A stretch of 53,191 nucleotides of DNA from an uncultured Methanosarcinales archaeon (GTDB taxonomy: Archaea > Nanobdellota > Nanobdellia > Woesearchaeales > CAZPJY01): positions 1-53,191 of the forward strand of contig CAZPJY010000009.1 in assembly GCA_964587045.1 (NCBI GenBank). Reading direction: 5' to 3'. Position 1 is the first letter of the stretch; every line of letters starts with the position of its first letter. Of this stretch, positions 28,083 to 47,697 are shown one piece after another. A model generated the notes under the pieces. It saw only the letters and a list, made by a program, of their open reading frames with translations, searched no databases and was not told the origin of the DNA. The position numbers were made by a program, and so were the translations under genes.

Positions 28083-29279
28083 ATGCTCATAGAAGTTTTG
28101 ATAGCCGTTTGCTCAGGAGTACTCGCAGGCATCTTCACAGGCCTCATCCCAGGCATCCACATCAACCTAGTCGCACTGGGACTGCTCACAGCGTCGCCCA
28201 TTCTTCTCAGGCACATCTCGCCCCTGCCGCTTGCATGCTTTGTCATTGCCATGTCAGTCACCCACAGCTTCCTCGACTTCATCCCTTCGGTCTACCTAGG
28301 AGCCCCTGACCCAGACACCGCCCTCTCCATACTTCCGGGGCACAAGCTGCTGCTCGCTGGCAAGGGCTACGACGCGGTGCGCCTGACCCTCATCGGAAGC
28401 CTCATCTCCCTGGTGCTCTGTGTCATACTCACCCCGCTGCTACTCGTTGTCTTTCCGATCATCTACCCATTCTTCTCAGAGCACATGGCCCTGCTTCTGT
28501 GCGGCATCATCCTCTTCCTCGCAACAAGGGGGCCGTTCTTCCTGAACCTCGCCGTCTTCCTAGCAACAGGACTGCTGGGGCTCGCTGTCCTTTCCCTGCC
28601 AAACCTCCCTAACCCTTTGTTCCCCCTCCTTTCCGGGCTGTTTGGTGTCTCAACTCTCCTGCTCTCGCTGAACAGCGATTCCAAGCTTCCGGAGCAGACG
28701 ACTGAGGCAAGCGTCATGATAGACCAGCCGACGACTCTCAAGGCCGCGGGTCTCGCGACAATCGCAGGCAGCCTGACAGGGCTGCTGCCCGGGCTCGGCG
28801 CTGCCCAAGGAGCTGCGCTCGCCACGACGTTTGCCAAAGGCCTGGGCGAGTTCGGCTTCATGATAATGCTTGGGGGCATCAACACCGCCAACTTCGTGGT
28901 GAGCCTCGCCACGTTGCTGACGATGGGCAAGGCGAGGAACGGTGCTGTGATAGCTGTCTCGCAGCTGCTGGAGATGGACAAGGCAGTGCTGGTCGTCTTC
29001 CTCGCCGTGGCAGTCATAGCCGGAGCCGCTTCTGTGTTCATAGCTATCGGGATTTCCAAGCAGTGCTCCAAGGCGTTTTCCAGGGTGCCTTACAAGAAAC
29101 TGGTGATGGGAATCATCATGCTGCTGGTGGCGATGACGTTTGGCTTTTCAGGATTCCTTGGGCTGCTTGTGCTGTTGACGTCGACCGCGATAGGTCTGAT
29201 AGCGCCGCTCAAGGGGGTGGGCAGGCATTTTGCGATGGGCTGCCTGATCCTGCCTGTGGTAGTGTTCCTATCTAGCTAG
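28083..29279 (+). CDS. TctA-family (tripartite tricarboxylate transporter-like) permease
   Basis: GIFTGLIPGIHIN, HSFLDFIPSVYLGAPD, LPGH, PLLSGLFG, GLLPGLG; very hydrophobic. Confidence 0.88.
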   Translation: MLIEVLIAVCSGVLAGIFTGLIPGIHINLVALGLLTASPILLRHISPLPLACFVIAMSVTHSFLDFIPSVYLGAPDPDTALSILPGHKLLLAGKGYDAVRLTLIGSLISLVLCVILTPLLLVVFPIIYPFFSEHMALLLCGIILFLATRGPFFLNLAVFLATGLLGLAVLSLPNLPNPLFPLLSGLFGVSTLLLSLNSDSKLPEQTTEASVMIDQPTTLKAAGLATIAGSLTGLLPGLGAAQGAALATTFAKGLGEFGFMIMLGGINTANFVVSLATLLTMGKARNGAVIAVSQLLEMDKAVLVVFLAVAVIAGAASVFIAIGISKQCSKAFSRVPYKKLVMGIIMLLVAMTFGFSGFLGLLVLLTSTAIGLIAPLKGVGRHFAMGCLILPVVVFLSS

Positions 29280-30056
29280 GTTCGGATGGGTCAATGCCAG
29301 ACGATTATAAAGGTAATGGCCCATCTTCTCTGCCGGCCAGATATTGCCGTTGATTCCATCAATAAGGGAGTTGACCTCGCTGATGAAATCAGAAAGTCTG
29401 GCGTTGCCAGTTTCCCTTGAGTATTTAGCAATCCTTTTGACTTTGAACAGCTCTTCTGATTCGAAGACATTCTGGCCACGGGTCATGACCAGGCGGAATT
29501 TTGGCTCATCGGGCGCGATACACCCCAGGTAGTCAGCAAGCTCTTTTGCGTGATTCATGAACAGTCCTAATGTCAGGTAACCATCAAGGATGATTTCGTT
29601 GTTGTTCTTCCAGGAGTTGAATAAACGGATATCATGATAGTACAGCGCGTTCTTCAGGCCTTCTCTGACCACTGAGGGGAGCGGGTCATAGCTTGATTCC
29701 GCATAAACGTTGAAAGGGTTGGGTATCAGTTTTCCAAGATCTGTATTCCTAATAAGGTAAGCGAGGTCGATGTCAGTCTTCTTCAGAACTTTTAGAATGT
29801 GCGCTTTTGGAACTTCTGCAATACGTGGATTGAATCCATGTGTAAATCTGATGTGATCAACATACTCGGCAATATGATGCGGATCATAATATTTTGATGC
29901 AGAACAATACGAGTATTTCACTATCTGCATTAGGCACGGCCGCACGTCGAAAACTGAAAGCTTCTTCTCCTTTTTCGGCTTTTTAGGAGCTTTCTGTTTA
30001 GGAGCTTCCTCGCCTGATGCGAATTCCAGATCCTTTCCTCTGATTACTTGGTTCAC
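29268..30056 (-). CDS. MoxR/vWA-operon paralog 3 (N-terminal tag family)
   Basis: GTG start in GTGA overlap with the upstream stop; begins (M)NQVIRGKDLEFASGEE. Confidence 0.75.
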   Translation of the reverse strand: MNQVIRGKDLEFASGEEAPKQKAPKKPKKEKKLSVFDVRPCLMQIVKYSYCSASKYYDPHHIAEYVDHIRFTHGFNPRIAEVPKAHILKVLKKTDIDLAYLIRNTDLGKLIPNPFNVYAESSYDPLPSVVREGLKNALYYHDIRLFNSWKNNNEIILDGYLTLGLFMNHAKELADYLGCIAPDEPKFRLVMTRGQNVFESEELFKVKRIAKYSRETGNARLSDFISEVNSLIDGINGNIWPAEKMGHYLYNRLALTHPNLAR

Positions 30057-30826
30057 GCGCCCCACTTGGTTTTGTACTCTCTCTTTACCCTTTTGAAATC
30101 CTCAAGCATCGGCATCAGAGCTGTTATGTTGTAAAGCCTTGCGAACTTGGTGAGGGACTCTAGGCTAGGCATGGATTTCGTTATGATCTGCTCAATATCA
30201 TCCTTCCACCGCTTATCACAGGATTCAGTCTTTGTTATTTCCAAATCGTCGTTGTCAATTCCGACCTTGATAGCCAGAGCCATCATCGGGCGGTATTCAA
30301 TCTTCATGTCCATGACGTAGACGAGAGGGTGATACGTGGTTATTTCTCGCCTGGTGACCAGCAGGTCTCTTTGCATCTTCTCAAGATCCGGTATGAGCGA
30401 AAACAGGTACTCCTTGTTGGACAGGTCATCATCAATGCTTTTTACTATGTCTGTTTCCAGTATGTAGTCGTCCCCTACCAGCTCGCGGAGCATCTGGACC
30501 AGGTGCTTCTTTTCTATGGTCCTGCTCCAAACCACGCTGTGATGTATCCCATTGTTATAAGCTAATGGTTCGATATCGAAGAGGTAAATACCTGAGTACC
30601 TGACGGCATTTTCATATTTCGGGCTCCAGTCTGCCCCACCAGTTTGGCCCGGCACAAGACCCTGAAAGTATTTCACCAGGAAGTCCCCGATGACCTTTCC
30701 GCCTTCCTCCCATATCTTGCCGAGGCCGCTTTCAGGCTTTTTCTCCTCGACTTCTGGAGTCTCCTCTTTAGGGACTTCTTCGCCAGATGCGAATTCCAGG
30801 TCCTTTCCCTTGATTACCTTGTTCAT
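29997..30826 (-). repeat. Two copies of a 60-bp 5' coding segment (29997-30056 and 30767-30826)
   Basis: Hand alignment gives 50/60 identical nt, including shared GATGCGAATTCCAG. Encodes the N-terminal tag of paralogs 2 and 3. Confidence 0.85.
30053..30826 (-). CDS. MoxR/vWA-operon paralog 2 (N-terminal tag family)
   Basis: ATG 2 nt after the upstream stop; begins MNKVIKGKDLEFASGEE. Confidence 0.78.
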   Translation of the reverse strand: MNKVIKGKDLEFASGEEVPKEETPEVEEKKPESGLGKIWEEGGKVIGDFLVKYFQGLVPGQTGGADWSPKYENAVRYSGIYLFDIEPLAYNNGIHHSVVWSRTIEKKHLVQMLRELVGDDYILETDIVKSIDDDLSNKEYLFSLIPDLEKMQRDLLVTRREITTYHPLVYVMDMKIEYRPMMALAIKVGIDNDDLEITKTESCDKRWKDDIEQIITKSMPSLESLTKFARLYNITALMPMLEDFKRVKREYKTKWGA

Positions 30827-30828
30827 GC

Positions 30829-31566
30829 TTACCACATGTTTTGATAGTCTAATACCCTGCTGTTGATGTCCTCGATGATCGTCCGCAGTTGCCTTACCCC
30901 GTACCTCTTGGCCTCTTGGGCTAGCAGGGTGAGGGGCACCGTCGCGTTGGATACCTGAGAGATCCTGTCCGCATGATTGAAAGGCTCTCCCCGCATCATA
31001 CCGCTCTGCAGGCCTTCCCTGATTGCCACCGCGACAAGAGGCCTGTTCTCAGGCTCAAGCCCCATGCACAGTATGTAAGGGTGCACTGAAATCCCCTGCT
31101 TGGTGGAACCGGCCAGAAGTTTCGTGGCTGCTGTGAAACTGGGTATTATCTCATCGATGTTAGGTTCGTCTCCTATCAGGTCAGTGTTGTTGATTTCGTC
31201 GCCATACACGCTTTCCAGCACCTTGAATAGGAACTGGTAGTTCGGCATTATTATATCCACATTTTGTGAGGCTCTTTCTGGTGACCGGCTCCAGGCAGGA
31301 TATATTTTCAGGACGAAGGGCCCCATCCTCGTAATGAACTCCTTCATCGACGGTCCTAGGTTCCGTCCCCATGACTTATTGTTCAGATTGCCTTCGAAGT
31401 AGTCCACCAGAGCTTCACCCAGGTATTCCTGTGCGTCCTTGATGAGGTTCAGACCGCTTCTGGTCTGCCGACTGACAGTCTCCTCCAAGGATGATTCCTC
31501 CTGTCGGGGTTCCTTATTTTCAGAGCTGAAGTCCAGCTCCTCGTTCGATCTTATAACCTTGCCCAT
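30829..31566 (-). CDS. MoxR/vWA-operon paralog 1 (N-terminal tag family)
   Basis: TGATG overlap with the vWA gene; begins MGKVIRSNEELDFSSE; body aligns by eye with paralog 2. Confidence 0.78.
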   Translation of the reverse strand: MGKVIRSNEELDFSSENKEPRQEESSLEETVSRQTRSGLNLIKDAQEYLGEALVDYFEGNLNNKSWGRNLGPSMKEFITRMGPFVLKIYPAWSRSPERASQNVDIIMPNYQFLFKVLESVYGDEINNTDLIGDEPNIDEIIPSFTAATKLLAGSTKQGISVHPYILCMGLEPENRPLVAVAIREGLQSGMMRGEPFNHADRISQVSNATVPLTLLAQEAKRYGVRQLRTIIEDINSRVLDYQNMW

Positions 31567-33743
31567 CAGCTGTCACCGGTGTATTTGATCAGCACTTCGC
31601 CCAGCACCTTCTCGACGTCCTTGACAGATCCGACTATCCTTCCCTGGACGTTTGGGTGCTTTGACGCTAAATTTTGGATATGTGAATAGTATGAACCTCC
31701 TGATCTTACGCCTATGAAGAGGATGCTCCTGTCCGGCTTGTTGGCTATCTCCTCGATCTTCCTCATGTTGCCTGACACATCACCTGTTATATCGCCGTCT
31801 GAGACTATTGTGTAGACTGCCTTGCCGTGCTTGACGTCCTTTTCGCACTTGTCAAAAACCGACGTCTTGATGGCCGTGCCGCCCCACTGGGGGATCAGCT
31901 GGACCTTCTTGAAGAAGCTTGAGTGGTCCTTGTACACCGACTCGAGGTCGAATACGCCTGAGTAAACGGTCGAGTTGGAGAACTGCACCGCCCCGACGTT
32001 GACTGGTATGCCCATTTCCTTTGCGACCGGGTAGATTGCCTTCATCCACCCGTAGTCTATCCTGTTGAGCTGGTCGAACTTGTTCTCTGAGCCGAGGTAG
32101 CCTGAGCTGCTGGACTTTCCTCCTTCATTCATGCTCCCTGAGACGTCGTTGAACATGAACCAGTACTCAGGCAGTTCTATCCCCGACTTCTCATAGTTGA
32201 TGGCCCTCACAGGTATTTCATTGACTTTGTATTCGTAGTAGTAGGTAAGGTTGGTGGCCTTGTCGTGCCTGAGCATGGGTATGCCTGACGCCTGCTGCAG
32301 CGCTAGTATGTGCTTGATGTTGAAAGTTGCCAGGTCACTTGGCGTGAGCAGGTGGGTTGTCTTGTAGACGAGTATCTTCCGGTTGCCCAGGTTCTTTGAT
32401 ATCACTCGTGTGTGCGGGCTCCTCAGCTTGATGGGAACAGCGTTCTGCCTGTAGAACTCGTCAGCAGCCTGCACCGCGAGGTCTAGCTTGACCTGCTTGC
32501 CTGACGGCTCGCCTGCGCCGTTGCCTCCCGGGCTTGGAGTGCTTCCTCCTGACAGCTCCTGCTGGGCCGCGTTGGCCACTTCCGTGAGAAGGCTCTGCGC
32601 TTCGCTCTCGTCGCCTTCCTCAGCCAGCGCTTCCAATATGTTGGCCAGGGCTTCGCTTGCGTTGCCGCCTGTTCCTCCCATCGAAAAACGGCCCTCTTCC
32701 TGCTGCGTGGAGATGAGGTCTGCGAAGGACTGCACGAAACCCCTGAACAGGTCGTAGCGCAGCTGGTCCTTCTCAAGCATGGTCATCATAGTGCTCAGGG
32801 CTGTGTCGCGGGCAGCTAGGTAGTTGCCCTCGCCGTCGAACAGCGAGTCCACCGCTTTCAGGTAATCGTCCCTGTTAAGGTTATAAGCCTTCATTGCCTT
32901 AGCGTCGATTTCCTTTACCACGCCTTCCAACGCATCCTTCGCCCTGTTTTCCGGGTCGAATCTACCTGACGCTGCCTGCTGCGCCTTCTTCTCAAACAGC
33001 TTGTTCACGTTCTCCCTGACCTCTTCGTCGTTGATGAACAGCTTTCCGTAAAGTATCCGCGACAGTGGGTATGTGGGTGAAGGCTGGCTTCTGGAGTGGT
33101 GGAACTCGACTATGTCCCATATCGGGACGACCGCGTCCGGAAGGTTGCGGATGTTTTCCTGCAGCAGCTTCACTGCTTCCCTGCCGTACACCGTCTCAAT
33201 AGATTTCGGGAGAGTGATGTCCATCTCCTTCATGGCATAGAAGGTGCAGTCGTCCCCGAAATCGTGTATCAGGTTCCTGATGTTACCCACCTTCCTGAGT
33301 ATGTCCGCCCTGTTGCCAGGTGCTGCCTCCTTGATACCCCTGTACAGCGCTAGGTCGATTCTTTTTGCGTCCTTCCTTCCCCTGGGGATGTCCGTGTCGT
33401 GGATCATCTCGTGGAAGAACAGGTAGACAAAGTTGTCGCGTGCCAGGCTCTCCACCAGCTCTTTTTCGTCCTTGCGGCCGGGAACAGCGCTGTTGCCGTA
33501 CAGCTTTGCGATCCTTTCCCTTCCGAACAGCGGTATTACTGCCTTGATTAAGCCCTCCTCAATCGCCTTTGGGTCATTGATTTGTGCGATGTATTTGGAG
33601 TGGTCGTTTGCAAAGAGCCACATGTGACCGCCCTGCTGGGGCTTCTTGTCGACAGGCCAGTCCTTGCGAAGCGGGTTCTCCAAGGTGATGATCTTCCTGA
33701 AGAGACCCTCTGCACGGTCCAGCTGTTCGCGTATGATGCTCAT
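31566..33743 (-). CDS. vWA-domain protein with N-terminal HExxH metallopeptidase-like motif
   Basis: FFHEMIHD near the N-terminus, Gly/Ser-rich linker, MIDAS FNDVSGSM ... GGT ... IVSDGD. Confidence 0.82.
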   Translation of the reverse strand: MSIIREQLDRAEGLFRKIITLENPLRKDWPVDKKPQQGGHMWLFANDHSKYIAQINDPKAIEEGLIKAVIPLFGRERIAKLYGNSAVPGRKDEKELVESLARDNFVYLFFHEMIHDTDIPRGRKDAKRIDLALYRGIKEAAPGNRADILRKVGNIRNLIHDFGDDCTFYAMKEMDITLPKSIETVYGREAVKLLQENIRNLPDAVVPIWDIVEFHHSRSQPSPTYPLSRILYGKLFINDEEVRENVNKLFEKKAQQAASGRFDPENRAKDALEGVVKEIDAKAMKAYNLNRDDYLKAVDSLFDGEGNYLAARDTALSTMMTMLEKDQLRYDLFRGFVQSFADLISTQQEEGRFSMGGTGGNASEALANILEALAEEGDESEAQSLLTEVANAAQQELSGGSTPSPGGNGAGEPSGKQVKLDLAVQAADEFYRQNAVPIKLRSPHTRVISKNLGNRKILVYKTTHLLTPSDLATFNIKHILALQQASGIPMLRHDKATNLTYYYEYKVNEIPVRAINYEKSGIELPEYWFMFNDVSGSMNEGGKSSSSGYLGSENKFDQLNRIDYGWMKAIYPVAKEMGIPVNVGAVQFSNSTVYSGVFDLESVYKDHSSFFKKVQLIPQWGGTAIKTSVFDKCEKDVKHGKAVYTIVSDGDITGDVSGNMRKIEEIANKPDRSILFIGVRSGGSYYSHIQNLASKHPNVQGRIVGSVKDVEKVLGEVLIKYTGDS

Positions 33744-35638
33744 CAGTTGTTCCTCCCTAATGTCCTTGGAAGCCTTTGGATGTATACTCCGGGGAAGGTG
33801 ACGGTGCCTATCTTGTCCCTCTTTTCAACATATATCTTGCCCAGCTCCTCGAAGACCGATCCGACCAGTCCTTTGGACCCCTTGCCTGCGAGCTTGGAGA
33901 GTCTCTGGTCTATCGTGCCCTTGTATTTGTCCATGAATCCGGCGAGCGTGGCGAGGTCAGAAGCGCTGTGGTTTATGATCAGGCGCCTCACCTGGCTCCC
34001 GTTGTCGAGGGACTGCATAGATGACATCTGTGAGTAGAGGTTCTTGATGATCGTGTCGACGTTAAAGGAGTCGGAATGCTTGGCGGAGTGGAGAGCCTTC
34101 TTTATTGCCAGATTCTTGATTCCGCTGTCAGGGTCGTCCATCGAAAATTGTCTGCTGGTGTCGCTGAAGAGCTTCTGCTCGTACTCTGTCGCGAGTTTGG
34201 TGTATTCGATGATGGTCGTATTGATGGCATTCAGCGGTTCCTTTCCGGGCTGGCCGTCCTTGTTCTTGGCCAGTATTGCGGCGGCTATCGAGACGTCGTC
34301 GACTTGGAGCGTGTCCTCGTTTTTGAGGTAGGCCTCGAACGGGTCATCCAAATTGAACACCCGCATGATCTCCTTGATGGTGGATATCACGTCACCGAGG
34401 TCCTGCAGCTGGGCTATGTCCCTGGGCACTATCGTGGTGTTGAACTTGACTATCCCCTCGAGCACCTGCAGGTCGTTGTCGGTTTCGTCGATCGCCTGCA
34501 GGGCCGGAGCTGTCACCTGGTATTTGGGTCCCAGCACTTTAGTCCTGTTTTCCACAGTCTGGGCATCTACTGCCGCGGTCTGCTTGAGATCACCAGACAG
34601 CACCTGTACAAAGAGGTCGCCCAGTTCCAGCGCCGAGTAGTATATGTTCTTGTCGGTGCGCCTCGGATCGAGTGTATAGGCGTATATCGAAAGCCAATCC
34701 CTATCCACCTCTGAGTAGATTTCGTCCTTCTCCATCCCGAAGATGTTTGATACTACCTCACACCACTTGTCAAGCATCCTCTCATACTGGTGGTCCTGGC
34801 CGTTCGCGAGCCAAATAGAGGTTCCGAAGGCCTTGGCGGCGTTGGGCACCTGTTCCTTGATCATCCTGTTGAGCGAGGCTGCGTCGAGCTCCTGACTCTG
34901 GGTGAATTTTGCGTCGACGCTCGCCGGCGGGTTGGTCGAGCAGGTTACCTGGACCTTCTTCTTCCTGCGAGTGTCCTGGATTCCTTCGTTGGTGAGCTCT
35001 GGTACGTACGGCCCGATATCTGCCTTCTGGTGGCCTGCGGTGTCTATGCGCGCCTCTATGATCTGCATCATGGCCTGTGAGTCGCCCCTGCTTGCCTCGT
35101 CGATGTGGATGCGAGCCGTCTTGTCCAGGGCTTCGTGCTGGATTACGGTTTCGAAGTTGCCGTCCTCATCGACCCTGGTCTTAACGAAGTATGAGAGCAG
35201 GTTGTTCTGCATCGGGTTTCCCGAAAGCCTGACGTTTTGGTAGTTGTCAGGTGCCAGCACGGTCTTGTTGTACTCCTCAGCTGCAAAGGTCTTGCCTGCG
35301 CCTGTATCTCCCATCTGCAATATCTGCGTGCTTCGCATGTCGAAAGCCACGAGGAAGTCGATTGCCTTCATGTCGAGAGCTCCATCGACCTCTTCAGGGC
35401 AGTACCCATTCCGTTCCTTGAACATCAAGGTGTTGGTATCCGGGTCGTACCGTGCATGGAATATGGAATTGGGCCAGACCTGAGACGCCATCGTGTCGTA
35501 TACCGCTTCGATGAATCCGATCAGACTTGCGGTGTACACATTCTTGTCAACCTCGACGAGCTCGGTTATGCCCATCTCCCGGACCTTGTCCGCTATTTTG
35601 TCTAGAGTGTGTTTTGATAAGGTGGATTTAGTTGCCAT
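33743..35638 (-). CDS. MoxR-like AAA+ ATPase with long C-terminal extension
   Basis: Walker A GDTGAGKT, Walker B IHIDEASR, sensor STNP, LDAASLNR arginine finger. Coupled to the vWA gene; SD AGGAGGAG. Confidence 0.82.
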   Translation of the reverse strand: MATKSTLSKHTLDKIADKVREMGITELVEVDKNVYTASLIGFIEAVYDTMASQVWPNSIFHARYDPDTNTLMFKERNGYCPEEVDGALDMKAIDFLVAFDMRSTQILQMGDTGAGKTFAAEEYNKTVLAPDNYQNVRLSGNPMQNNLLSYFVKTRVDEDGNFETVIQHEALDKTARIHIDEASRGDSQAMMQIIEARIDTAGHQKADIGPYVPELTNEGIQDTRRKKKVQVTCSTNPPASVDAKFTQSQELDAASLNRMIKEQVPNAAKAFGTSIWLANGQDHQYERMLDKWCEVVSNIFGMEKDEIYSEVDRDWLSIYAYTLDPRRTDKNIYYSALELGDLFVQVLSGDLKQTAAVDAQTVENRTKVLGPKYQVTAPALQAIDETDNDLQVLEGIVKFNTTIVPRDIAQLQDLGDVISTIKEIMRVFNLDDPFEAYLKNEDTLQVDDVSIAAAILAKNKDGQPGKEPLNAINTTIIEYTKLATEYEQKLFSDTSRQFSMDDPDSGIKNLAIKKALHSAKHSDSFNVDTIIKNLYSQMSSMQSLDNGSQVRRLIINHSASDLATLAGFMDKYKGTIDQRLSKLAGKGSKGLVGSVFEELGKIYVEKRDKIGTVTFPGVYIQRLPRTLGRNN

Positions 35639-36734: not shown

Positions 36735-38282
36735 ATGAGATTCAAGAGGATTGCCCTGTTATCTAACATCGCCCTATTCTTGCCCCTGCTCGCGAGTCTC
36801 GTTTATGCAGGGTTCACAGACCCTATCAGCTCTGTGCTAAGCGTCTTCGGCGACTTCAACGTCTATGACATCTACCAAAACTACTGGGGCATCATCGACT
36901 TCATCCTCTACCTTATCATCTTCATTGGCCTGTCGCAGCAGACCCTGGGCAGAAGGTTCCAGGGCCGCGCCTCCTCGTCAATATCCACTGGAATCGGCAT
37001 CGCGCTCGCGATAGCAGCTGCATTCGGCGCCAGGCAGTTCAACTTCAGGCTTGGCGACATGGCGCCCATCGCCCTCCTCATCTTCATCCTGCTCATCGCG
37101 ATGGAGATGGCATACGTCACCCACAGGCTCATCGGCGACTGGAAGCCGGCCATCGCCGCAGCCTTCCTGCTCACCTACTTTGCCATCAACGCTGTCGCGC
37201 CGTTCATCATGGACTGGCTCAGGGAGCGCGTCCCCTTCATAGCGAGCGTGTTCTCAATCCTCGTCATAATCGCGCTGATATCGGTCTTCGCCTTCGTGCT
37301 GAAAATCAGGAGGAGCGGAGGCGGAGCGACCATGGGTGACGTGGCCAGGGGGGCCAAGAGCGGCTGGAGGACAGGCAGGGACGAGCACGCAGCAAAAGTT
37401 GCCAGGAAGAAAGCCCTCAAGCAGGAGGACGAAGCCAATAAGGATGATGAGTTGAGCACGAAGCTCACAGCAGCGGAGATTGCAGCGTTGAATGCAGAGA
37501 GGGGGCCTGAGCATGAAGCGTGGGAAGAACTTCGCAGGGAGAAGTGGGACGTCGACAGGATCAAGGAGATCGTCCAGCGGGTGGATCAGGCTGAAGAGCT
37601 CATAAACCAGTACCAGCAGAAGGTAGACGCCGCACACGAAGACGCCCGCAAGCACGGCATGAACGATGAAAGGAGGGAACTCATCAAACGCGCTGAGGCG
37701 TACATCGGACAGCTTAAGGATCACAAGATGCAATTGGAAAAAGCGGCTAGCCAACCTGTGGCCGACTCCGCAGTACAACAGGGTAAAAAGGAGAAGGAGT
37801 CAGAGAAGCTCCAAGAGCTAGACAAGCGGGCGCTCAAGATTGCAGAGATGGACAAGGATGCTCTGGAGGAGGAGATAAAACATCTTAACAAAGAGCTCAA
37901 CGCAAGGGCGGATGAGCTCAGGAATGAGGGCGTAACAGATTACTCTTCCGATGAGAAAATGAAGCACCTTCAATCACGCATTGCCCTCCTTAACATCGCA
38001 ATAAGGGATATAAGCAAGGTAGTTGACGACGACAAGCGTCAGATACTGCTTGACAAGATGGAAAGGAAACTCGAAAGAAAAGAGCACAAGGATATCGTCG
38101 AGATGTACGCTTTGTTCAATGATATGAACAACCCGAGTAGGGAGGAAGCGGCAATCCACAAACTAAAATCAACAATCGGCGACCTCGACAGCGAAGTAAT
38201 AAAAGAAGCCAAGGTTGAACACGAGAAAAAAGAGTCCACTGAAAACGCTACAGAAGAATCCAAAAACGCTCAAAAGAAATAA
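36735..38282 (+). CDS. Polytopic membrane module + coiled-coil tail (array member 1)
   Basis: IDFILYLIIFIGLSQQTLGRRFQGR module, then a charged helical C-terminus. Confidence 0.78.
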   Translation: MRFKRIALLSNIALFLPLLASLVYAGFTDPISSVLSVFGDFNVYDIYQNYWGIIDFILYLIIFIGLSQQTLGRRFQGRASSSISTGIGIALAIAAAFGARQFNFRLGDMAPIALLIFILLIAMEMAYVTHRLIGDWKPAIAAAFLLTYFAINAVAPFIMDWLRERVPFIASVFSILVIIALISVFAFVLKIRRSGGGATMGDVARGAKSGWRTGRDEHAAKVARKKALKQEDEANKDDELSTKLTAAEIAALNAERGPEHEAWEELRREKWDVDRIKEIVQRVDQAEELINQYQQKVDAAHEDARKHGMNDERRELIKRAEAYIGQLKDHKMQLEKAASQPVADSAVQQGKKEKESEKLQELDKRALKIAEMDKDALEEEIKHLNKELNARADELRNEGVTDYSSDEKMKHLQSRIALLNIAIRDISKVVDDDKRQILLDKMERKLERKEHKDIVEMYALFNDMNNPSREEAAIHKLKSTIGDLDSEVIKEAKVEHEKKESTENATEESKNAQKK

Positions 38283-38324: not shown

Positions 38325-39959
38325 ATGAAGCGATTAGGCCAGATTAACCTATTTCTGTTGCCAATCCTAGCTACTGCCGTAGCCGGTGGGGGAACAGACC
38401 CCATATCCAGTGTTCTATCAGTCTTCAGGAACTTCAGCCTCCCAAACGTCTACCAGGGCAACATCGCTCACTTCATCGACTTCATAATCTACCTGATAAT
38501 ATTCATCGGCCTCTCGCAGCAGACCCTGGGCCGCAGGTTCGAAGGGCGTGGCGGCTCCGCACTGACGACAGGCATGGGTTTGGCATTAGGCATAGCCGCA
38601 GCAGTCGCAGAGTACTACTTCGACTTCGTGCTGGGGAACCTCGCTCCGTTAGCTCTTGCCATACTCATCATAGTCGTGTCAATCATGCTCTTCACAGTCC
38701 TACTGGCCCTCGGGCTTGATAAATTCACAGCGACTTCAACGACCTATGTCACAATGTACTTCATGTTCTTCGCTGTCGCGCCTGAATATTTCGACTGGAT
38801 GAGGCAGCAGTCGAACGCGCTCCTCGGAATCCTGTCCATAATCCTCCTAATCGCTATATGGCGCATGTTCCAGGGATTGTGGTACGCTTTCAGGCCGCAT
38901 ACAGAAGGCGCAGGAGAAGGTATCGCCAACAGGCTGAGCAACCTGGATAACCGTGACACCACAGATTACGGCTCATTCGCCGACGACTACAGGGAGGCAA
39001 GACAGAAGAAGCAGGAAGATGTCGAAGATCTCGAGAAGAAGCGTCGGTTCGAGCACATCAACAAGGTAGAGGACGCCGCGTTCAACGACATCAGGACAGC
39101 GGTTGCCGAATGCAAGCACTACATCATGAACATCATATCGTACAACCAGAAACCAACGCCCGAGATCTACGACACCATATTCAGCTACGTGGCAAAGATC
39201 AGATCGCTTTTCAGGGACAGGATAAATGAGATAACAGAGGAGAGGAAGCAGCACCTGAAGGAGCTCAAGCAAAGTGCCGATACAGACATCAAGCGTCTTG
39301 AGAAATTGCTCAAAGGCAACAAAAAGGAAGGAAATATCGAAGGTAAGGAGTCCCGCAAGGCTGAGGAACAAAGAGATATAATCAACGAGGAGATGAAGAA
39401 AGCCAGGAGTATAACATACGATAAAGCCAGAGAGAAAATACTTGCTTACCTTGATCGCATCGACAAGGAGCTAAAGGAAGTCGAGCAAGAAGCGAAGCAG
39501 ATGAAGGAGCTCACCCTCAGAGTTATCAACTCAACGCCTGCCTGGATTGATTTCCACAGGCAAATGAGCCTGCGCCTCATGTCTTACTTGGACCATTTCA
39601 AGAGTCTGGAAAAAAAGCACCAAACCATCAGCAAGATATTGAACATGCTTGAAAACGTCCTGAAGGACCTGGAAAAGATGCCCCTCTCCCAAAGGCAAGT
39701 GCAAGTGGTCAAGGAGGAGTTCGAGGCGCTAGAAGGACACATCACAGACATCCAGACCGCGCTGAGGAAGGTCAGGGAAGTCGAGTCCGTAGAGTTCAGG
39801 TCAAAGGAGCAGGAGTTCGAACGCCTAACCAAAGAGCTCGAGCGGTGGAGCGCCCGGAAGTACCAGCTTGCTAGCCGTATCAAGACTGTTAAAAAAGCTC
39901 TTAAGAAAGATCTTGAGCAAGTCAAGGAGCAAGCAGAAAAAGATGAGTCACAGCTTTGA
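38325..39959 (+). CDS. Polytopic membrane module + coiled-coil tail (array member 2)
   Basis: IDFIIYLIIFIGLSQQTLGRRFEGR module and a different charged helical tail; own TTTAAATA box near 38291. Confidence 0.78.
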   Translation: MKRLGQINLFLLPILATAVAGGGTDPISSVLSVFRNFSLPNVYQGNIAHFIDFIIYLIIFIGLSQQTLGRRFEGRGGSALTTGMGLALGIAAAVAEYYFDFVLGNLAPLALAILIIVVSIMLFTVLLALGLDKFTATSTTYVTMYFMFFAVAPEYFDWMRQQSNALLGILSIILLIAIWRMFQGLWYAFRPHTEGAGEGIANRLSNLDNRDTTDYGSFADDYREARQKKQEDVEDLEKKRRFEHINKVEDAAFNDIRTAVAECKHYIMNIISYNQKPTPEIYDTIFSYVAKIRSLFRDRINEITEERKQHLKELKQSADTDIKRLEKLLKGNKKEGNIEGKESRKAEEQRDIINEEMKKARSITYDKAREKILAYLDRIDKELKEVEQEAKQMKELTLRVINSTPAWIDFHRQMSLRLMSYLDHFKSLEKKHQTISKILNMLENVLKDLEKMPLSQRQVQVVKEEFEALEGHITDIQTALRKVREVESVEFRSKEQEFERLTKELERWSARKYQLASRIKTVKKALKKDLEQVKEQAEKDESQL

Positions 39960-40031: not shown

Positions 40032-41393
40032 ATGGATAAATACCGCACAAACCGTGCGCTCAAGCTAGTTTTACCTTTGATAGTTCTATTTTCGAGCATC
40101 CCAGCGGCGCTCGCAGACATCTACGGCTGGCTGTACGCGTGGCAGAGGATAGACTTCGGCTCCTTCTACATGAGGGCTGCAGGCTTCGTGGACTTCTTCG
40201 TCTACCTGCTCATATTCCTGGGGCTAGCCCAGTTCACCTTCGCAAGGCTCTATGAGGGCAGGTCCGGAAAGGCAGTTGCGATCGGAGTGGGCACAGCCCT
40301 TGCGATAGGGGCGGTAGTGGCAGAGTCGATGTTTGGCTTCAACCTGGGCTCGCTTGCCCCGATAGCCGTCATCCTTATCATAATCCTTCTGGGAATCGTC
40401 GTCTTCATGCTCTTCAAGAGCATGGACATTTGGACTGGTGCAGCGCTCTCGTGGACCTACATGATCATGTACTTCATATCCAAGGCAATGTTCCCCGGCT
40501 TCTGGGCCTGGATGTACTCGACCCAGTACGGGCGCGGCCTTGACGGACTGCTGGGCATCGCGCTGCTGCTTGCGATTTGGCGTGGCATCCAATCTGTCTG
40601 GATCGGTTTCAGGGTCGAGGACCCGGACAAATCGCCGCCAGACCCATACAGGGATCCAGAACCGTTCCCTGCAGACGATACACCTCGCCAGCCCAGGCAG
40701 AAGAAGTACCTGCCCAGGCCTCCCATGAACCTGAAGGCCATGCCCAATCCCGAAACAGGCCAGATCGAGGTGTCGTGGCAGCCTACTCCCAGCTCCGACA
40801 ACGTCAACCTCTACGAGGTCTACCGGATGCCCGGGCGCTCCAAGCAAAAGAAGTTCGAGCAGGTGGGATACGCAGAGCCGCCAAGCACGAGGTATGTGGA
40901 TGAGATAGTCCAGCCGGGAGAGAAGTACACCTACTACATCAGGGCCGTAAACGAGTTCGGTAGGAGCAACCCGTCAAATTATGATCACGCGACAGTCCCT
41001 GACCGGCCCGGACCGTCACCTCCACACAAGCCCACAATTGAGCCCGACGTCGCGAACAACAGGCTGCTGGTCAGCTGGAAGCCGAGCGACAAGGCTGGAG
41101 AAGAGCATGTCGTAGGCTACGAAGTCTTCAGGTTCCCAAACAGCAAGCACAAAGAAGAGTACGCCCAGGTACCAAAGGAAAAAGATGTCCTCAAAGGGAA
41201 TGAATATCACGATTCCAACGTCAAGAGAGGTATCACATACAGCTATAGGGTGAGGGCTGTAGACAAAGAGGACAGGAGGGGAGGCTTCAGCGACCACGAG
41301 GAAGGCACGCTCCCTGGAGTCCCCGACCTGACACCGAAGCTTCACATCAAGCACGGGGAGAATGAAGTAGTGCTGAGCGGAAAACTAGAATGA
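40032..41393 (+). CDS. Polytopic membrane module + two fibronectin type III-like domains (array member 3)
   Basis: VDFFVYLLIFLGLAQFTFARLYEGR module; PPMNLKA...VSW...YEVYR...YTYYIRAVN and a second copy ...YSYRVRAVD. Confidence 0.8.
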   Translation: MDKYRTNRALKLVLPLIVLFSSIPAALADIYGWLYAWQRIDFGSFYMRAAGFVDFFVYLLIFLGLAQFTFARLYEGRSGKAVAIGVGTALAIGAVVAESMFGFNLGSLAPIAVILIIILLGIVVFMLFKSMDIWTGAALSWTYMIMYFISKAMFPGFWAWMYSTQYGRGLDGLLGIALLLAIWRGIQSVWIGFRVEDPDKSPPDPYRDPEPFPADDTPRQPRQKKYLPRPPMNLKAMPNPETGQIEVSWQPTPSSDNVNLYEVYRMPGRSKQKKFEQVGYAEPPSTRYVDEIVQPGEKYTYYIRAVNEFGRSNPSNYDHATVPDRPGPSPPHKPTIEPDVANNRLLVSWKPSDKAGEEHVVGYEVFRFPNSKHKEEYAQVPKEKDVLKGNEYHDSNVKRGITYSYRVRAVDKEDRRGGFSDHEEGTLPGVPDLTPKLHIKHGENEVVLSGKLE

Positions 41394-44656: not shown

Positions 44657-45364
44657 ATGATAAGCACGAAGAAAAAGATTACCAACCCGATAATCATTGA
44701 AGGCTTCCCAGGCTTCGGCCTCGTAGGGACCATAACGACCGAATGGCTGATGCAACACCTCAAGATGGAGCTCATCGGCTCACTCAACTTCGACGACATG
44801 CCGCCAATGGTCGCGGTGCACGGAGGGAAGGTCGTGCAGCCTATAGGCATATACTACAACGCACAGCACAACCTCATCCTGGTCCACGTCCTGACCAACG
44901 TGAAAGGGATGGAATGGAAGGTATCCAAACTCATAATGGACCTGGCCAACGAGTTCAAGGCCAAGGAGATCATAAGCCTGGAGGGCATAGGCGCAACGCA
45001 GCCCTCAGACGATCCGGCCGTTTACTACTTCTCAAACGACAAGGAGCGCAAGGGCAAGCTGACCGACATAGGGCTCCCGCCTCTCAACGAGGGCATCATC
45101 ATGGGAGCGACTGCTTCGGTGATGCTGGAGGCAAAAAACCTGCCTCTGACATGCCTCTTTGCTGAGGTTCACACAGAGCTTCCGGACTCCAAGGCAGCAG
45201 CCAAGATAATAGAGGCATTGGACAAGTACATGGGGCTGAAGGTCGACTACGAAGGGCTGTACAAGCAGGCTGAGGTGATGGAGGCCAAGCTCAAGGGCAT
45301 CATGTCCCAAAGCGCGCAGGCTGAGAAGGCTGCCAACGAAAAGGCCATGAGCTACGTCGGCTAG
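44657..45364 (+). CDS. PAC2-family proteasome assembly chaperone
   Basis: IIEGFPGFGLVGTI, IISLEG, GIIMG, PDSKAAA motifs; SD AGGTGA favours ATG 44657. Confidence 0.9.
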   Translation: MISTKKKITNPIIIEGFPGFGLVGTITTEWLMQHLKMELIGSLNFDDMPPMVAVHGGKVVQPIGIYYNAQHNLILVHVLTNVKGMEWKVSKLIMDLANEFKAKEIISLEGIGATQPSDDPAVYYFSNDKERKGKLTDIGLPPLNEGIIMGATASVMLEAKNLPLTCLFAEVHTELPDSKAAAKIIEALDKYMGLKVDYEGLYKQAEVMEAKLKGIMSQSAQAEKAANEKAMSYVG

Positions 45365-47697
45365 GTGCTCAGAATCTCCTTTATCCTATTATAGACCTCA
45401 GGATGCACTGCCGGATCGAGCATGAGCGAGTGCAGAAGCTTAGTCCTCGAGGGGCACCTCCCGAACACGTCCATGTTCTCAGCACCCTCAATAGGGACGT
45501 TAGCCGAAAGAACGATCCCATCCCCGTCGCTGCCGCCCATATCGCAGCCCATGCCTGTGAAAGTGAACTGGAACACATCCCTTGGCTGGTTGTTCGGGTC
45601 GTTTAGTTTCTTGAGGAAGATGCTCCCCTTGGTCATGTCCTGGCACTCAAAAGAGGAGCCCAGCACCGGACAGAGCGTGTCCACCTGCCCGACAATCCCA
45701 TAGTTGGGTGTGCCAACCATGATCAGTGTGTGGACGCTCGCATCGCCGAAAATCTGCAAGTACCTCCTAGCGACAAGACCTCCCATGGAGTGCGCTATGA
45801 CCTTGACCTGGGGCTTGCCAGTCATGAGCTTTGCGGTGTCTATGATGTCCTTCAGGCGGACAGCGTAAACGTCGATGCGCTCGCTCTTCTGCGGAGTCAG
45901 GACGTACTCGCCCTGGTCGTTATAGACGTCGAAGTAGTAAGAGACCTTCACGACGACGGGCTTGCCCGAGAGCCCCCACTCCCCCTTCTCGCCCTTGTCA
46001 GCAGGGCTTATGAATCCTGCCGGCAGGAAGCCGTCCGCCACCAAGTGCTCCTCCAAGCTGTCGAATACTGTCAGGGAGTAGAGCGGCGAGACGCGCTCGT
46101 TTACGGCGTGGCCGTGTACCAGGAGTATTGGGAAGGTGGCAGGGTCGTTTGCGCACGACTCGTCCGAGCAGCAGGGCTTGCAGTCGCCGAACACGCAGCA
46201 CACAGGCAGGTTCTCTGAAAGCACGGTGCCGATCGGGGACGCGGGATGCGAGAAATTCAGCGTGAGGTTTCCCACTCCGACGACGCTGGGGACGACCACA
46301 TCCTCAAAGGCGGATTGGCAGTGGGAGCCGACGAACTTTTCATAGCCGGCCGAAGGGATTATGCTGCTCCCGGACGCAATCTCATAGAAAGTCACCGTGC
46401 GGTTGTCCACATCCGCCTCAAACGGTGCGAGGTTGCCGTTCCTCGCTTCTGCCTCGAAGCGGCTGACAGCGGCTTCATAATCTGGCTCCCCGACCAGATC
46501 GGTGATGTTGGCATCGAAGGGTGATGTGTAGTGCAGTCCGAGAAGGCCTGAGCAGACGGCATCCAGATTGTTGGCCACTTCAGAGCCGCAGCTGTAGTTG
46601 TAGGCCAAGCACAGGACCCGGCTCTCTTCATCATAAATCATCGATCCCTCACTGGTCAGGTTCGATAGCACCACTAACAGCGTCTTCAGGCTCTGGTTGG
46701 TATCGCGAGAGAGGGAGTCGAGGCCAGCGGATATGTGACTGTAGCTCTGTCCCCCGGTCTGGAAGTCAGCGACAAGGGATGAAAGCGTCGATGCGCTCAC
46801 CGTGGGCGAAAGCACAGTTCCCAGGCGGTCCGCCACAGATATCGCCTGGGCCAATGCTGTCCTGTTGAAGGCGGCCAGCCTGGATAGCAGGGCGTTGTGT
46901 TCGGCCTCCAGGTCGTGCATCTGCTGGCGCACGTCGCTTGCGTTGTTGAAGAGGTCCCACGCCTCCGAAAGTGGAGGAAGCTCCATATAAAGCTCCAGGT
47001 ACCTCTCTTCCTCCCAAAGCTGCCTGTAAGACTCAAGCCTCGTGACCCACCTGTCCAGCTCCTGGATTAGGATTATTGTGCGCGTCCTCACCTCTGCATC
47101 CTGGAACGATGGAGGAACCCCTGCCAGCGCATGCTCTATGCCCATCATCTCCTCATCAGCGCGGGCAGCTGCGTATAGCATGAGGGAAAGGTTGGATTCT
47201 ACATACCCTATTATGTCCTCCTCCTCAGGCGAAGGCCCGTAGTTCAGGGTGAGGAAGGCCCTCCTACTCGCTGCCTCCCCCAGCGTCAGGCACAGGGCCG
47301 AACGCTCGTGTACGCATGAAACCGAGAAGTCGTACAGCTTCTGGCCCTTGCCGAAGAGCGGAGCCTCCATAGTGGCGCTGTACCTGTAAAAACCTTTTGG
47401 CGGCAGTTCGAAGCTGCCGTTCGCTATGATCTGCCCTGATGACAGGTCTGTGTAACGGAACTCGCACGAGGAAGTGCACAGGAATTCGTCTTCGGTGGTT
47501 ATCTCGAAGGTCTTCTCCGCGATCTCGCCGTGGTACAGGGAAACCTTGCTACTGTCGTAATCCAGGTGTACCAAGAGGTCCTCGCCCACTTGGAAGGCTG
47601 CCCAGAGCGCAGCATACGCAGCTGCAAGCAGGACTGCCAGAAGGATTAGAGAAGCAAGCCCCCACTTCCACCAGGATCTGCGCTTCTTGCGTGCCAT
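45361..47697 (-). CDS. Membrane-anchored protein with C-terminal alpha/beta hydrolase (lipase-like) domain
   Basis: N-terminal TM; PILLVHG, IAHSMGGLVAR nucleophile elbow, GTPNYG, DGIV, terminal His. Confidence 0.85.
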   Translation of the reverse strand: MARKKRRSWWKWGLASLILLAVLLAAAYAALWAAFQVGEDLLVHLDYDSSKVSLYHGEIAEKTFEITTEDEFLCTSSCEFRYTDLSSGQIIANGSFELPPKGFYRYSATMEAPLFGKGQKLYDFSVSCVHERSALCLTLGEAASRRAFLTLNYGPSPEEEDIIGYVESNLSLMLYAAARADEEMMGIEHALAGVPPSFQDAEVRTRTIILIQELDRWVTRLESYRQLWEEERYLELYMELPPLSEAWDLFNNASDVRQQMHDLEAEHNALLSRLAAFNRTALAQAISVADRLGTVLSPTVSASTLSSLVADFQTGGQSYSHISAGLDSLSRDTNQSLKTLLVVLSNLTSEGSMIYDEESRVLCLAYNYSCGSEVANNLDAVCSGLLGLHYTSPFDANITDLVGEPDYEAAVSRFEAEARNGNLAPFEADVDNRTVTFYEIASGSSIIPSAGYEKFVGSHCQSAFEDVVVPSVVGVGNLTLNFSHPASPIGTVLSENLPVCCVFGDCKPCCSDESCANDPATFPILLVHGHAVNERVSPLYSLTVFDSLEEHLVADGFLPAGFISPADKGEKGEWGLSGKPVVVKVSYYFDVYNDQGEYVLTPQKSERIDVYAVRLKDIIDTAKLMTGKPQVKVIAHSMGGLVARRYLQIFGDASVHTLIMVGTPNYGIVGQVDTLCPVLGSSFECQDMTKGSIFLKKLNDPNNQPRDVFQFTFTGMGCDMGGSDGDGIVLSANVPIEGAENMDVFGRCPSRTKLLHSLMLDPAVHPEVYNRIKEILST

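Follow-up and report, generated by a model that had tools for sequence, protein, structure and literature searches.

The DNA analysed here (the window) is a stretch of 53,191 nt, positions 1 to 53,191 of contig CAZPJY010000009.1 (GenBank assembly GCA_964587045.1), from an uncultured archaeon that is filed as Methanosarcinales and placed by GTDB in the Woesearchaeales. On its minus strand lies a translationally coupled operon that encodes, in order, a MoxR-like AAA+ ATPase, a large adaptor with an HExxH motif and a von Willebrand factor A (vWA) domain, and three proteins, A, B and C, that begin with a short, similar peptide, here called the tag. Genomes are labelled G and loci L in what follows; the window's own genome (1.6 Mb) is G000. 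Protein A (30829..31566, minus strand; 245 aa) and protein B (30053..30826, minus strand; 257 aa) belong to one family, A/B, and protein C (29268..30056, minus strand; 262 aa) to another, the C family; the ATG start of A overlaps the stop codon of the vWA gene (TGATG), and the GTG start of C overlaps the stop codon of B. The tags occupy 31519..31566 in A (16 codons, the core exceeding those of B and C by one residue), 30767..30826 in B and 29997..30056 in C (20 codons each), all on the minus strand, with a DNA copy common to B and C. We argue below that the tag is likely a swappable label that brings variable proteins to the neighbouring ATP-driven remodelling machine.

Counted from their start codons, the tags of B and C are identical at 50 of 60 nt, while the tag of A aligns to them only with a one-residue gap; the three N-termini and the DNA match given in an earlier note on this stretch, which was made from the letters alone, proved exact in sequence and count. 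When the tags were used as queries against the 29,271 candidate open reading frame (ORF) starts of G000, A, B and C (together with alternative starts of the same ORFs) scored 50-54 and the runner-up scored 29; chance as the origin of the likeness was rejected. The proteome pattern proposed in the earlier note, KVIxxx[DE]L[DE]F, matches B only, whereas a looser pattern matches A, B and C and nothing else, and a six-frame pattern search of G000 revealed no tag site beyond these three. The N-terminal tag is thus real and confined to one operon in this genome. Two DNA sequencing runs, available as patchy contigs, contained no joints and no informative variation. In the structure model of B, residues 1-30 (tag and linker) have a predicted local distance difference test score (pLDDT) of 47-53, lack secondary structure and look disordered, and they precede a confidently modelled, mostly helical body, as expected for a peptide that folds on binding. 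Across the operons described below the tag is ~10-16 residues long, and the linker behind it is free in length and sequence.

The bodies behind the tags have diverged strongly. With the first 40 residues removed, A and B are homologous (phmmer E 7.6e-11), and an alignment of the C with the A/B family spans 142 body columns (hhalign 92%, E 6.7e-7). The earlier note had described otherwise divergent proteins that share scattered motifs only, which says too little of their kinship, A and B being homologues and C a remote one. A, B and C are thus distant paralogues, and in other genomes unrelated bodies carry tags. An exhaustive profile search expanded the A/B family to 240 clusters, and P0026 and P0024, nearest to A and to B respectively, have a 14-residue tag in common that is unlike the window's. 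A word-based homologue search with B recovered only B itself, and the ESM Atlas held no usable match for its body. The body of B has no clear fold match: the best VIA-align Z was 4.1, Foldseek gave no match at E<=0.001, and no C-type lectin (CLec) fold was among the hits, a result that neither shows a new fold nor excludes one. Scans of the five operon proteins against Pfam, NCBIfam and PHROG gave nothing at curated cut-offs, and a Pfam scan of 44 neighbour proteins of related operons likewise gave nothing at cut-off, which leaves room for remote homology.

The two upstream genes encode what appears to be a machine of the MoxR type. The ATPase (33743..35638, minus strand; 631 aa) carries Walker A (G110-T117), Walker B (D180-E181), N236 and R258, all invariant in 13 homologues, and so has the full MoxR/dynein-related AAA+ motif set of Walker A, Walker B, sensor 1 and arginine finger. 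Its nearest ESM Atlas clusters are all AAA_5 (score 0.94-0.95); Pfam assigned its homologues weakly to AAA_7 (5 of 13) or AAA_5 (2 of 13) and gave no assignment for the window ATPase, and no PDB sequence reached E<=0.01 in a profile search. [quoted passage not shown] Its MIDAS is complete (D533-x-S535-x-S537, T623, D649), and H111, E112, H115, D161, D533 and S535 are invariant in 26 of 26 homologues. The protein therefore has what defines the vWA partner of a MoxR/vWA pair, an adjoining gene with MIDAS and finger, and its metallopeptidase motif, fused N-terminal to the vWA domain, marks it as a putative peptidase. The operon is chromosomal and set among cellular genes; none of its five proteins matched a PHROG, and a search of viral contigs with a single vWA query found no relative, on which grounds we rejected a prophage or viral location.

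Related operons carry tags as well. Within the phylum, 17 of 401 genomes encode a homologue of the vWA protein (a tally that includes G000 and, here only, the unpublished genome G395), and vWA profile matches occur in 18 of 401 genomes of the order and in 11 of 240 genomes of a sister order, that of G166, the three samples overlapping. Window-type tags were found on genes flanking the vWA or ATPase gene in 15 genomes, from one per operon up to seven (G322); several other vWA loci lie on contigs too short to judge. Among the fetched loci there are 20 distinct A/B or C genes outside the window, of which two are truncated, by the end of a contig or by a run of Ns, and all 18 with a readable 5' end are tagged (18/18); the earlier note had staked its proposal on conservation in orthologous operons, and the tags are indeed there. 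The consensus reads basic-hydrophobic-hydrophobic-x-G/P-x-x-hydrophobic-x-F/L. Records with related tagged systems come from Woesearchaeota or Nanoarchaeia, which, with the small size of G000, suggests a host of DPANN type; three of the four bacterial records among nine tag-pattern matches (three of these nine rows being one contig) were examined, showed neither tagged gene nor machine and were dropped as chance.

The lineage holds several MoxR/vWA types. In G135, ten tagged genes lie between a different ATPase and a different vWA gene, and 10 of 10 tag matches fall in this one operon; this array (L066:4210 to L034:7026, G135:C2) is the largest found, with a helical-looking, distinct tag and a distant machine type. 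In five sister-clade genomes a longer tag occurs twice each and only in cis, so that tag sites are confined to the operon in seven genomes (G000, G135 and these five). Tagged cargo of this sister clade (L031) matches AvpA (PDB 5ioo, E 5.2e-10) from residue 49 onward, and the bodies of A, B and C did not cluster with it. We also observed that the sister-clade loci (L030, L031, L032, L048, L058) have a shorter ATPase (~525 aa), with two AvpA-like cargo genes flanking the vWA gene. Elsewhere, a conserved untagged gene of ~250-277 aa with no Pfam family stands between a tagged gene and the ATPase (L035:3867-4700 and L059:5225-4470), and further divergent ATPases paired with vWA-like proteins of ~620-780 aa have no evident tag array (L061, L062, L063, L064, L065). 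Weak vWA matches in G415, G407, G340, G573 and G244 were set aside as other systems, with no tag array evident by eye.

Comparison of tags with the bodies behind them shows that the tag tracks the system and not the cargo. From the neighbours in each operon we selected 47 tagged ORFs by eye, and statistics were computed on the 21 that cluster into the A/B and C families. The best 10-mer tag identity averaged 6.7/10 for pairs from the same genome and different subfamilies (n=7) and 3.1/10 for pairs from different genomes and the same subfamily (n=124), while body identity was ~21-22% in both classes. Among the best 150 of the 240 A/B-family clusters, 75 have a type 1 tag, 31 a type 2 tag (PIDDAL), 5 a type 3 tag and 39 none, where shuffled N-termini match the loose type-1 pattern at 16%. 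Type-2 tags (PIDDAL/AIDDAI) are found on A/B and C bodies beside a distant HExxH-vWA subfamily, which keeps HExxH and matches the window-type vWA profile at E 3e-4 to 1.5e-3, and beside a different MoxR; the loci include G331, with eight pattern matches behind the vWA gene, and L072, with three. In a tree of 34 bodies from the 150 (20 of type 1 and 14 of type 2), B has one type-2 group as its sister (95/92) and A another (90/89), with starred support for B only. Since the A and B bodies thus sit beside different type-2-tagged groups, the topology suggests that the cargo set was re-tagged on changing machine. We further noted PIDDAL-type tags on small unrelated genes of G768 and G769 (L069:8001, L076:6901, L083-L087), the latter genome having a matching vWA and ATPase on another contig.

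Codon usage allowed copying of DNA to be distinguished from conservation of the peptide. We compared the number of identical residues encoded by the same codon with expectation; 41 pairs were listed, which are not independent and were not corrected for multiple tests. The B and C tags of the window use the same codon at 13 of 17 such residues against 7.7 expected (P 0.006), and at 13 of 16 against 6.5 expected when 5'-end codon usage is applied. In G636 the tags agree at 19/20, 16/18 and 17/18 codons against about 9 expected, while the bodies agree at 33/61 against 31.8, and G135 and G208 also show excess synonymous identity in their tags. Given that tag codons agree in excess and bodies at chance, the 5' ends of window B/C, G636 and G135 were recently copied as DNA, long after the bodies diverged. 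Other tags have synonymous sites at chance (G159, 4/17 against 7.1 expected; G489, 7/17 against 6.1; G322, 9/17 against 6.3), and the tag of A agrees with those of B (5/8, 3.5 expected) and C (4/8, 3.2 expected) no more than by chance. Here the peptide has been kept while synonymous sites are saturated, so the peptide itself is under selection. Both broad ideas of the earlier note, constraint on the protein and copying of the DNA, thus find support side by side. The codon results would also explain how the code drifts between genomes and yet is uniform within one.

Taken together, we give a probability of roughly 55% to the reading that the tag is a docking label read by the peptidase-vWA adaptor, with the ATPase acting on whatever body hangs from it. 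Docking on the adaptor is inferred from the roles proposed for the vWA finger and MIDAS in MoxR pairs and from the Rea1 MIDAS, which serves two clients through a common element. In this scheme the tag, disordered alone, would fold upon binding as a short strand-turn-strand anchored by the hydrophobic residues V4, I5, L10 and F12 (numbering of B), and an acid near these anchors might complete the MIDAS metal site. As has been suggested for NorQ/NorD, the ATPase ring would grip the vWA finger, and hydrolysis of ATP would pull on, activate or release the docked client, whose linker the HExxH domain might cut; new clients would likely be recruited through unequal crossover or gene conversion within the 5' ~60 nt. 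The earlier note's more specific idea of an acidic MIDAS ligand draws no support from an invariant acid: acids are common but not tied to a single column, the best column has D/E in 18 of 31 aligned tags and the hydrophobic anchors are far better kept. Because the anchors and not an acid are conserved, docking in a groove or along a strand is likelier than a pure MIDAS ligand.

Several observations weigh against docking on the adaptor or against the system-specific tag on which it builds. One tag core (L021) has no acid at all and no acidic position is invariant, and in the sister clade with lectin-like cargo most members have lost the MIDAS threonine. Since the window bodies are paralogous, common descent explains part of the likeness of their tags; only a few same-genome tag pairs, themselves not independent, enter the comparison, the 47 ORFs were selected by eye, and 39 of the 150 A/B homologues have no classified tag. 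On the body tree, a single type-2 clade withstood an approximately unbiased (AU) test (p 0.056). Type-2 tags in G768 and G769 are scattered over several contigs with no adjoining machine, neither vWA nor ATPase was detected in G768 (completeness not stated) with the queries used, and G528 (L068) has an A/B gene with neither a recognisable tag nor a vWA gene beside it.

Tag type varies with the machine as a whole, so the present data cannot tell ATPase from vWA as partner of the tag. It is unlikely, in our judgement, that the ATPase engages the tag directly, by pore-threading or N-domain recognition in the manner of a degron, with the vWA protein only regulating. An N-terminal, unstructured tag on a long linker would suit such engagement, and tagged genes flank the ATPase gene as often as the vWA gene; on the other hand, it has been proposed that the vWA finger fills the MoxR pore and that the MIDAS binds the target (PMC9976466), and the window vWA has such a ribbon. 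The genome G331 bears on the same question, for it combines a vWA gene and a tagged array with no close cognate ATPase found with the query used (best match 30% over 160 residues), which points weakly to the vWA protein as the reader. The HExxH domain suggests another use of the tag, mainly as a peptidase site: the tag would be a pro-peptide, the body would mature or be released once it is cut off, and docking would be transient. H111, E112, H115 and D161 are invariant (26/26), HExxH persists in the distant type-2 vWA subfamily, and a metallopeptidase-vWA and MoxR pair has been proposed to process proteins in jumbo phages (PMC7824862). We nevertheless find this quite improbable, given that no conserved scissile motif follows the tag, the linker being free in length and sequence, and that tags differ wholly between machine types while HExxH is constant.

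Tags could also bind each other or a common cellular structure, as in homotypic assembly or export, the clients co-assembling with no part played by the ATPase or vWA protein. Within-genome matching has been described for effector-associated domains (EADs; PMC7159879) too, and the tags away from any machine in G768 and G769 would fit. Yet no tag copy is present in the cognate vWA or ATPase (one of 31 tags reached p 0.02 against shuffles), ~ten residues are too short for a folded homotypic domain, and the sites are confined to the operon in seven genomes, so we regard this as very doubtful. Least probable, and in our view remote, is that the tag has no function as protein and that duplication and gene conversion left it behind as a handle for recombination or a cassette for translation initiation. 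The excess synonymous identity in window B/C, G636, G135 and G208 speaks for it, as do translational coupling and homology that begins at the start codon; against it stand 17-residue peptide identity with synonymous sites at chance in G159, G489 and G322, a single hydrophobic pattern that recurs in 15 genomes and in 75 of 150 homologues, and a tag type that switches with machine type. A pure recombination handle was rejected, as the peptide is kept where synonymous sites are at chance and its type follows the machine.

The operon stands close to several described systems. Like the pair NorQ-NorD, in whose account CbbQ-CbbO and RavA-ViaA are also discussed and in which the vWA finger is proposed to plug the MoxR pore (PMC9976466), it pairs a MoxR-like ATPase with an adjacent protein of ~70-80 kDa that has a C-terminal vWA domain, a complete MIDAS and a beta-ribbon finger. 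That account describes one dedicated target bound through surface acids, whereas here many variable clients would use a common linear N-terminal tag, an HExxH domain forms part of the adaptor and the ATPase, at 631 aa, has about double the length. Rea1/Mdn1 similarly has one MIDAS adaptor for several clients with a common docking element, serving the ubiquitin-like (UBL) domains of Rsa4 and Ytm1 (PMC6624252); there the element is a folded UBL in a fused eukaryotic machine, and here a ~10-residue peptide that varies between genomes. Jumbo-phage pairs have the same two-gene architecture, with the peptidase N-terminal to the vWA domain, and are proposed to act in virion assembly (PMC7824862); the part of that source considered here mentions no tagged client array, and the present operon lies among cellular genes.

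The EAD-coupled MoxR-vWA ternary conflict systems, in which a core and variable parts are linked by a module at the terminus whose copies resemble each other most within a genome (PMC7159879), resemble the tagged operons also in their link to variable proteins of diversity-generating retroelements (DGRs) with the CLec fold (PMC7159879, PMC10907252). EADs are, however, folded domains, as against ~10-16 residues with pLDDT under 55, and one module copy sits on the core component, as against no copy in the cognate vWA or ATPase and three sites only in G000; nor was a third component (VMAP, iSTAND, FtsH or beta-propeller) or an enzymatic effector domain recognised among A, B, C and the 44 neighbours at the Pfam cut-off, remote homology being possible. 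We therefore rejected EAD membership, the tag being no folded domain and having no core copy. The word DPANN, the probable group of the window's host, is absent from the main text of PMC7159879. AvpA itself is an archaeal DGR variable protein of CLec fold (PDB 5ioo; PMC5006420); the sister-clade cargo (L031) is homologous to it, with tag and linker added before the AvpA-like body, unlike A, B and C, whose bodies match no known fold. Searches of published full texts turned up no description of tagged MoxR-vWA operons in DPANN, subscription journals and supplements lying outside this coverage and supplements of DGR or conflict papers being places where they could be listed; the main text of Paul et al. 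2015 (PMC4372165) mentions none of MoxR, ATPase or von Willebrand. The tagged system is general among related archaea and apparently undescribed in print. New here are the codon test, the comparison of tag with body and, for one cargo family, the change of tag type along with machine type.

Beyond the operon, and diverging from it, three tandem plus-strand genes of the window (36735-38282, 38325-39959 and 40032-41393) have in common a multi-pass membrane N-domain of ~180 residues (42% and 27% identity to the first) followed by unrelated C-terminal parts (charged coiled-coil-like; FN3-like, with a weak CbhB match), forming a second array with constant head and variable body. Near a large membrane-protein cluster lies a minus-strand gene (45361-47697) for a protein of 778 aa whose C-terminal part is a lipase/alpha-beta hydrolase domain (Pfam Lipase_2).

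Client choice by MoxR/vWA machines is understood for few pairs only, all of which serve a single dedicated target. If it rests on a short and portable tag specific to each system, it would be directly testable, and hundreds of unannotated DPANN proteins would find their place in one pathway. We tentatively extend this, at somewhat less than even odds, to a DPANN "plug-in" system, in which each machine would read its own ~10-residue code, a 60-nt code gained by recombination would suffice to make a client, and codes would be orthogonal, with cargo re-tagged as it moves; the same graded reading counts hypervariable lectin-fold sensors and the undescribed helical family (240 clusters) among the clients. 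Orthogonal codes would amount to a natural library of tag/adaptor pairs that unfold, cleave or release proteins at the expense of ATP, probably in defence or host attack. The host archaeon is small and likely symbiotic, and a role in conflict or host interaction is likely, given the hypervariable cargo, some of which is related to a DGR-diversified lectin. The AvpA-like cargo would thereby tie archaeal DGR-type lectins to an ATP-driven machine, which bears on the role of diversified proteins in episymbiotic archaea.

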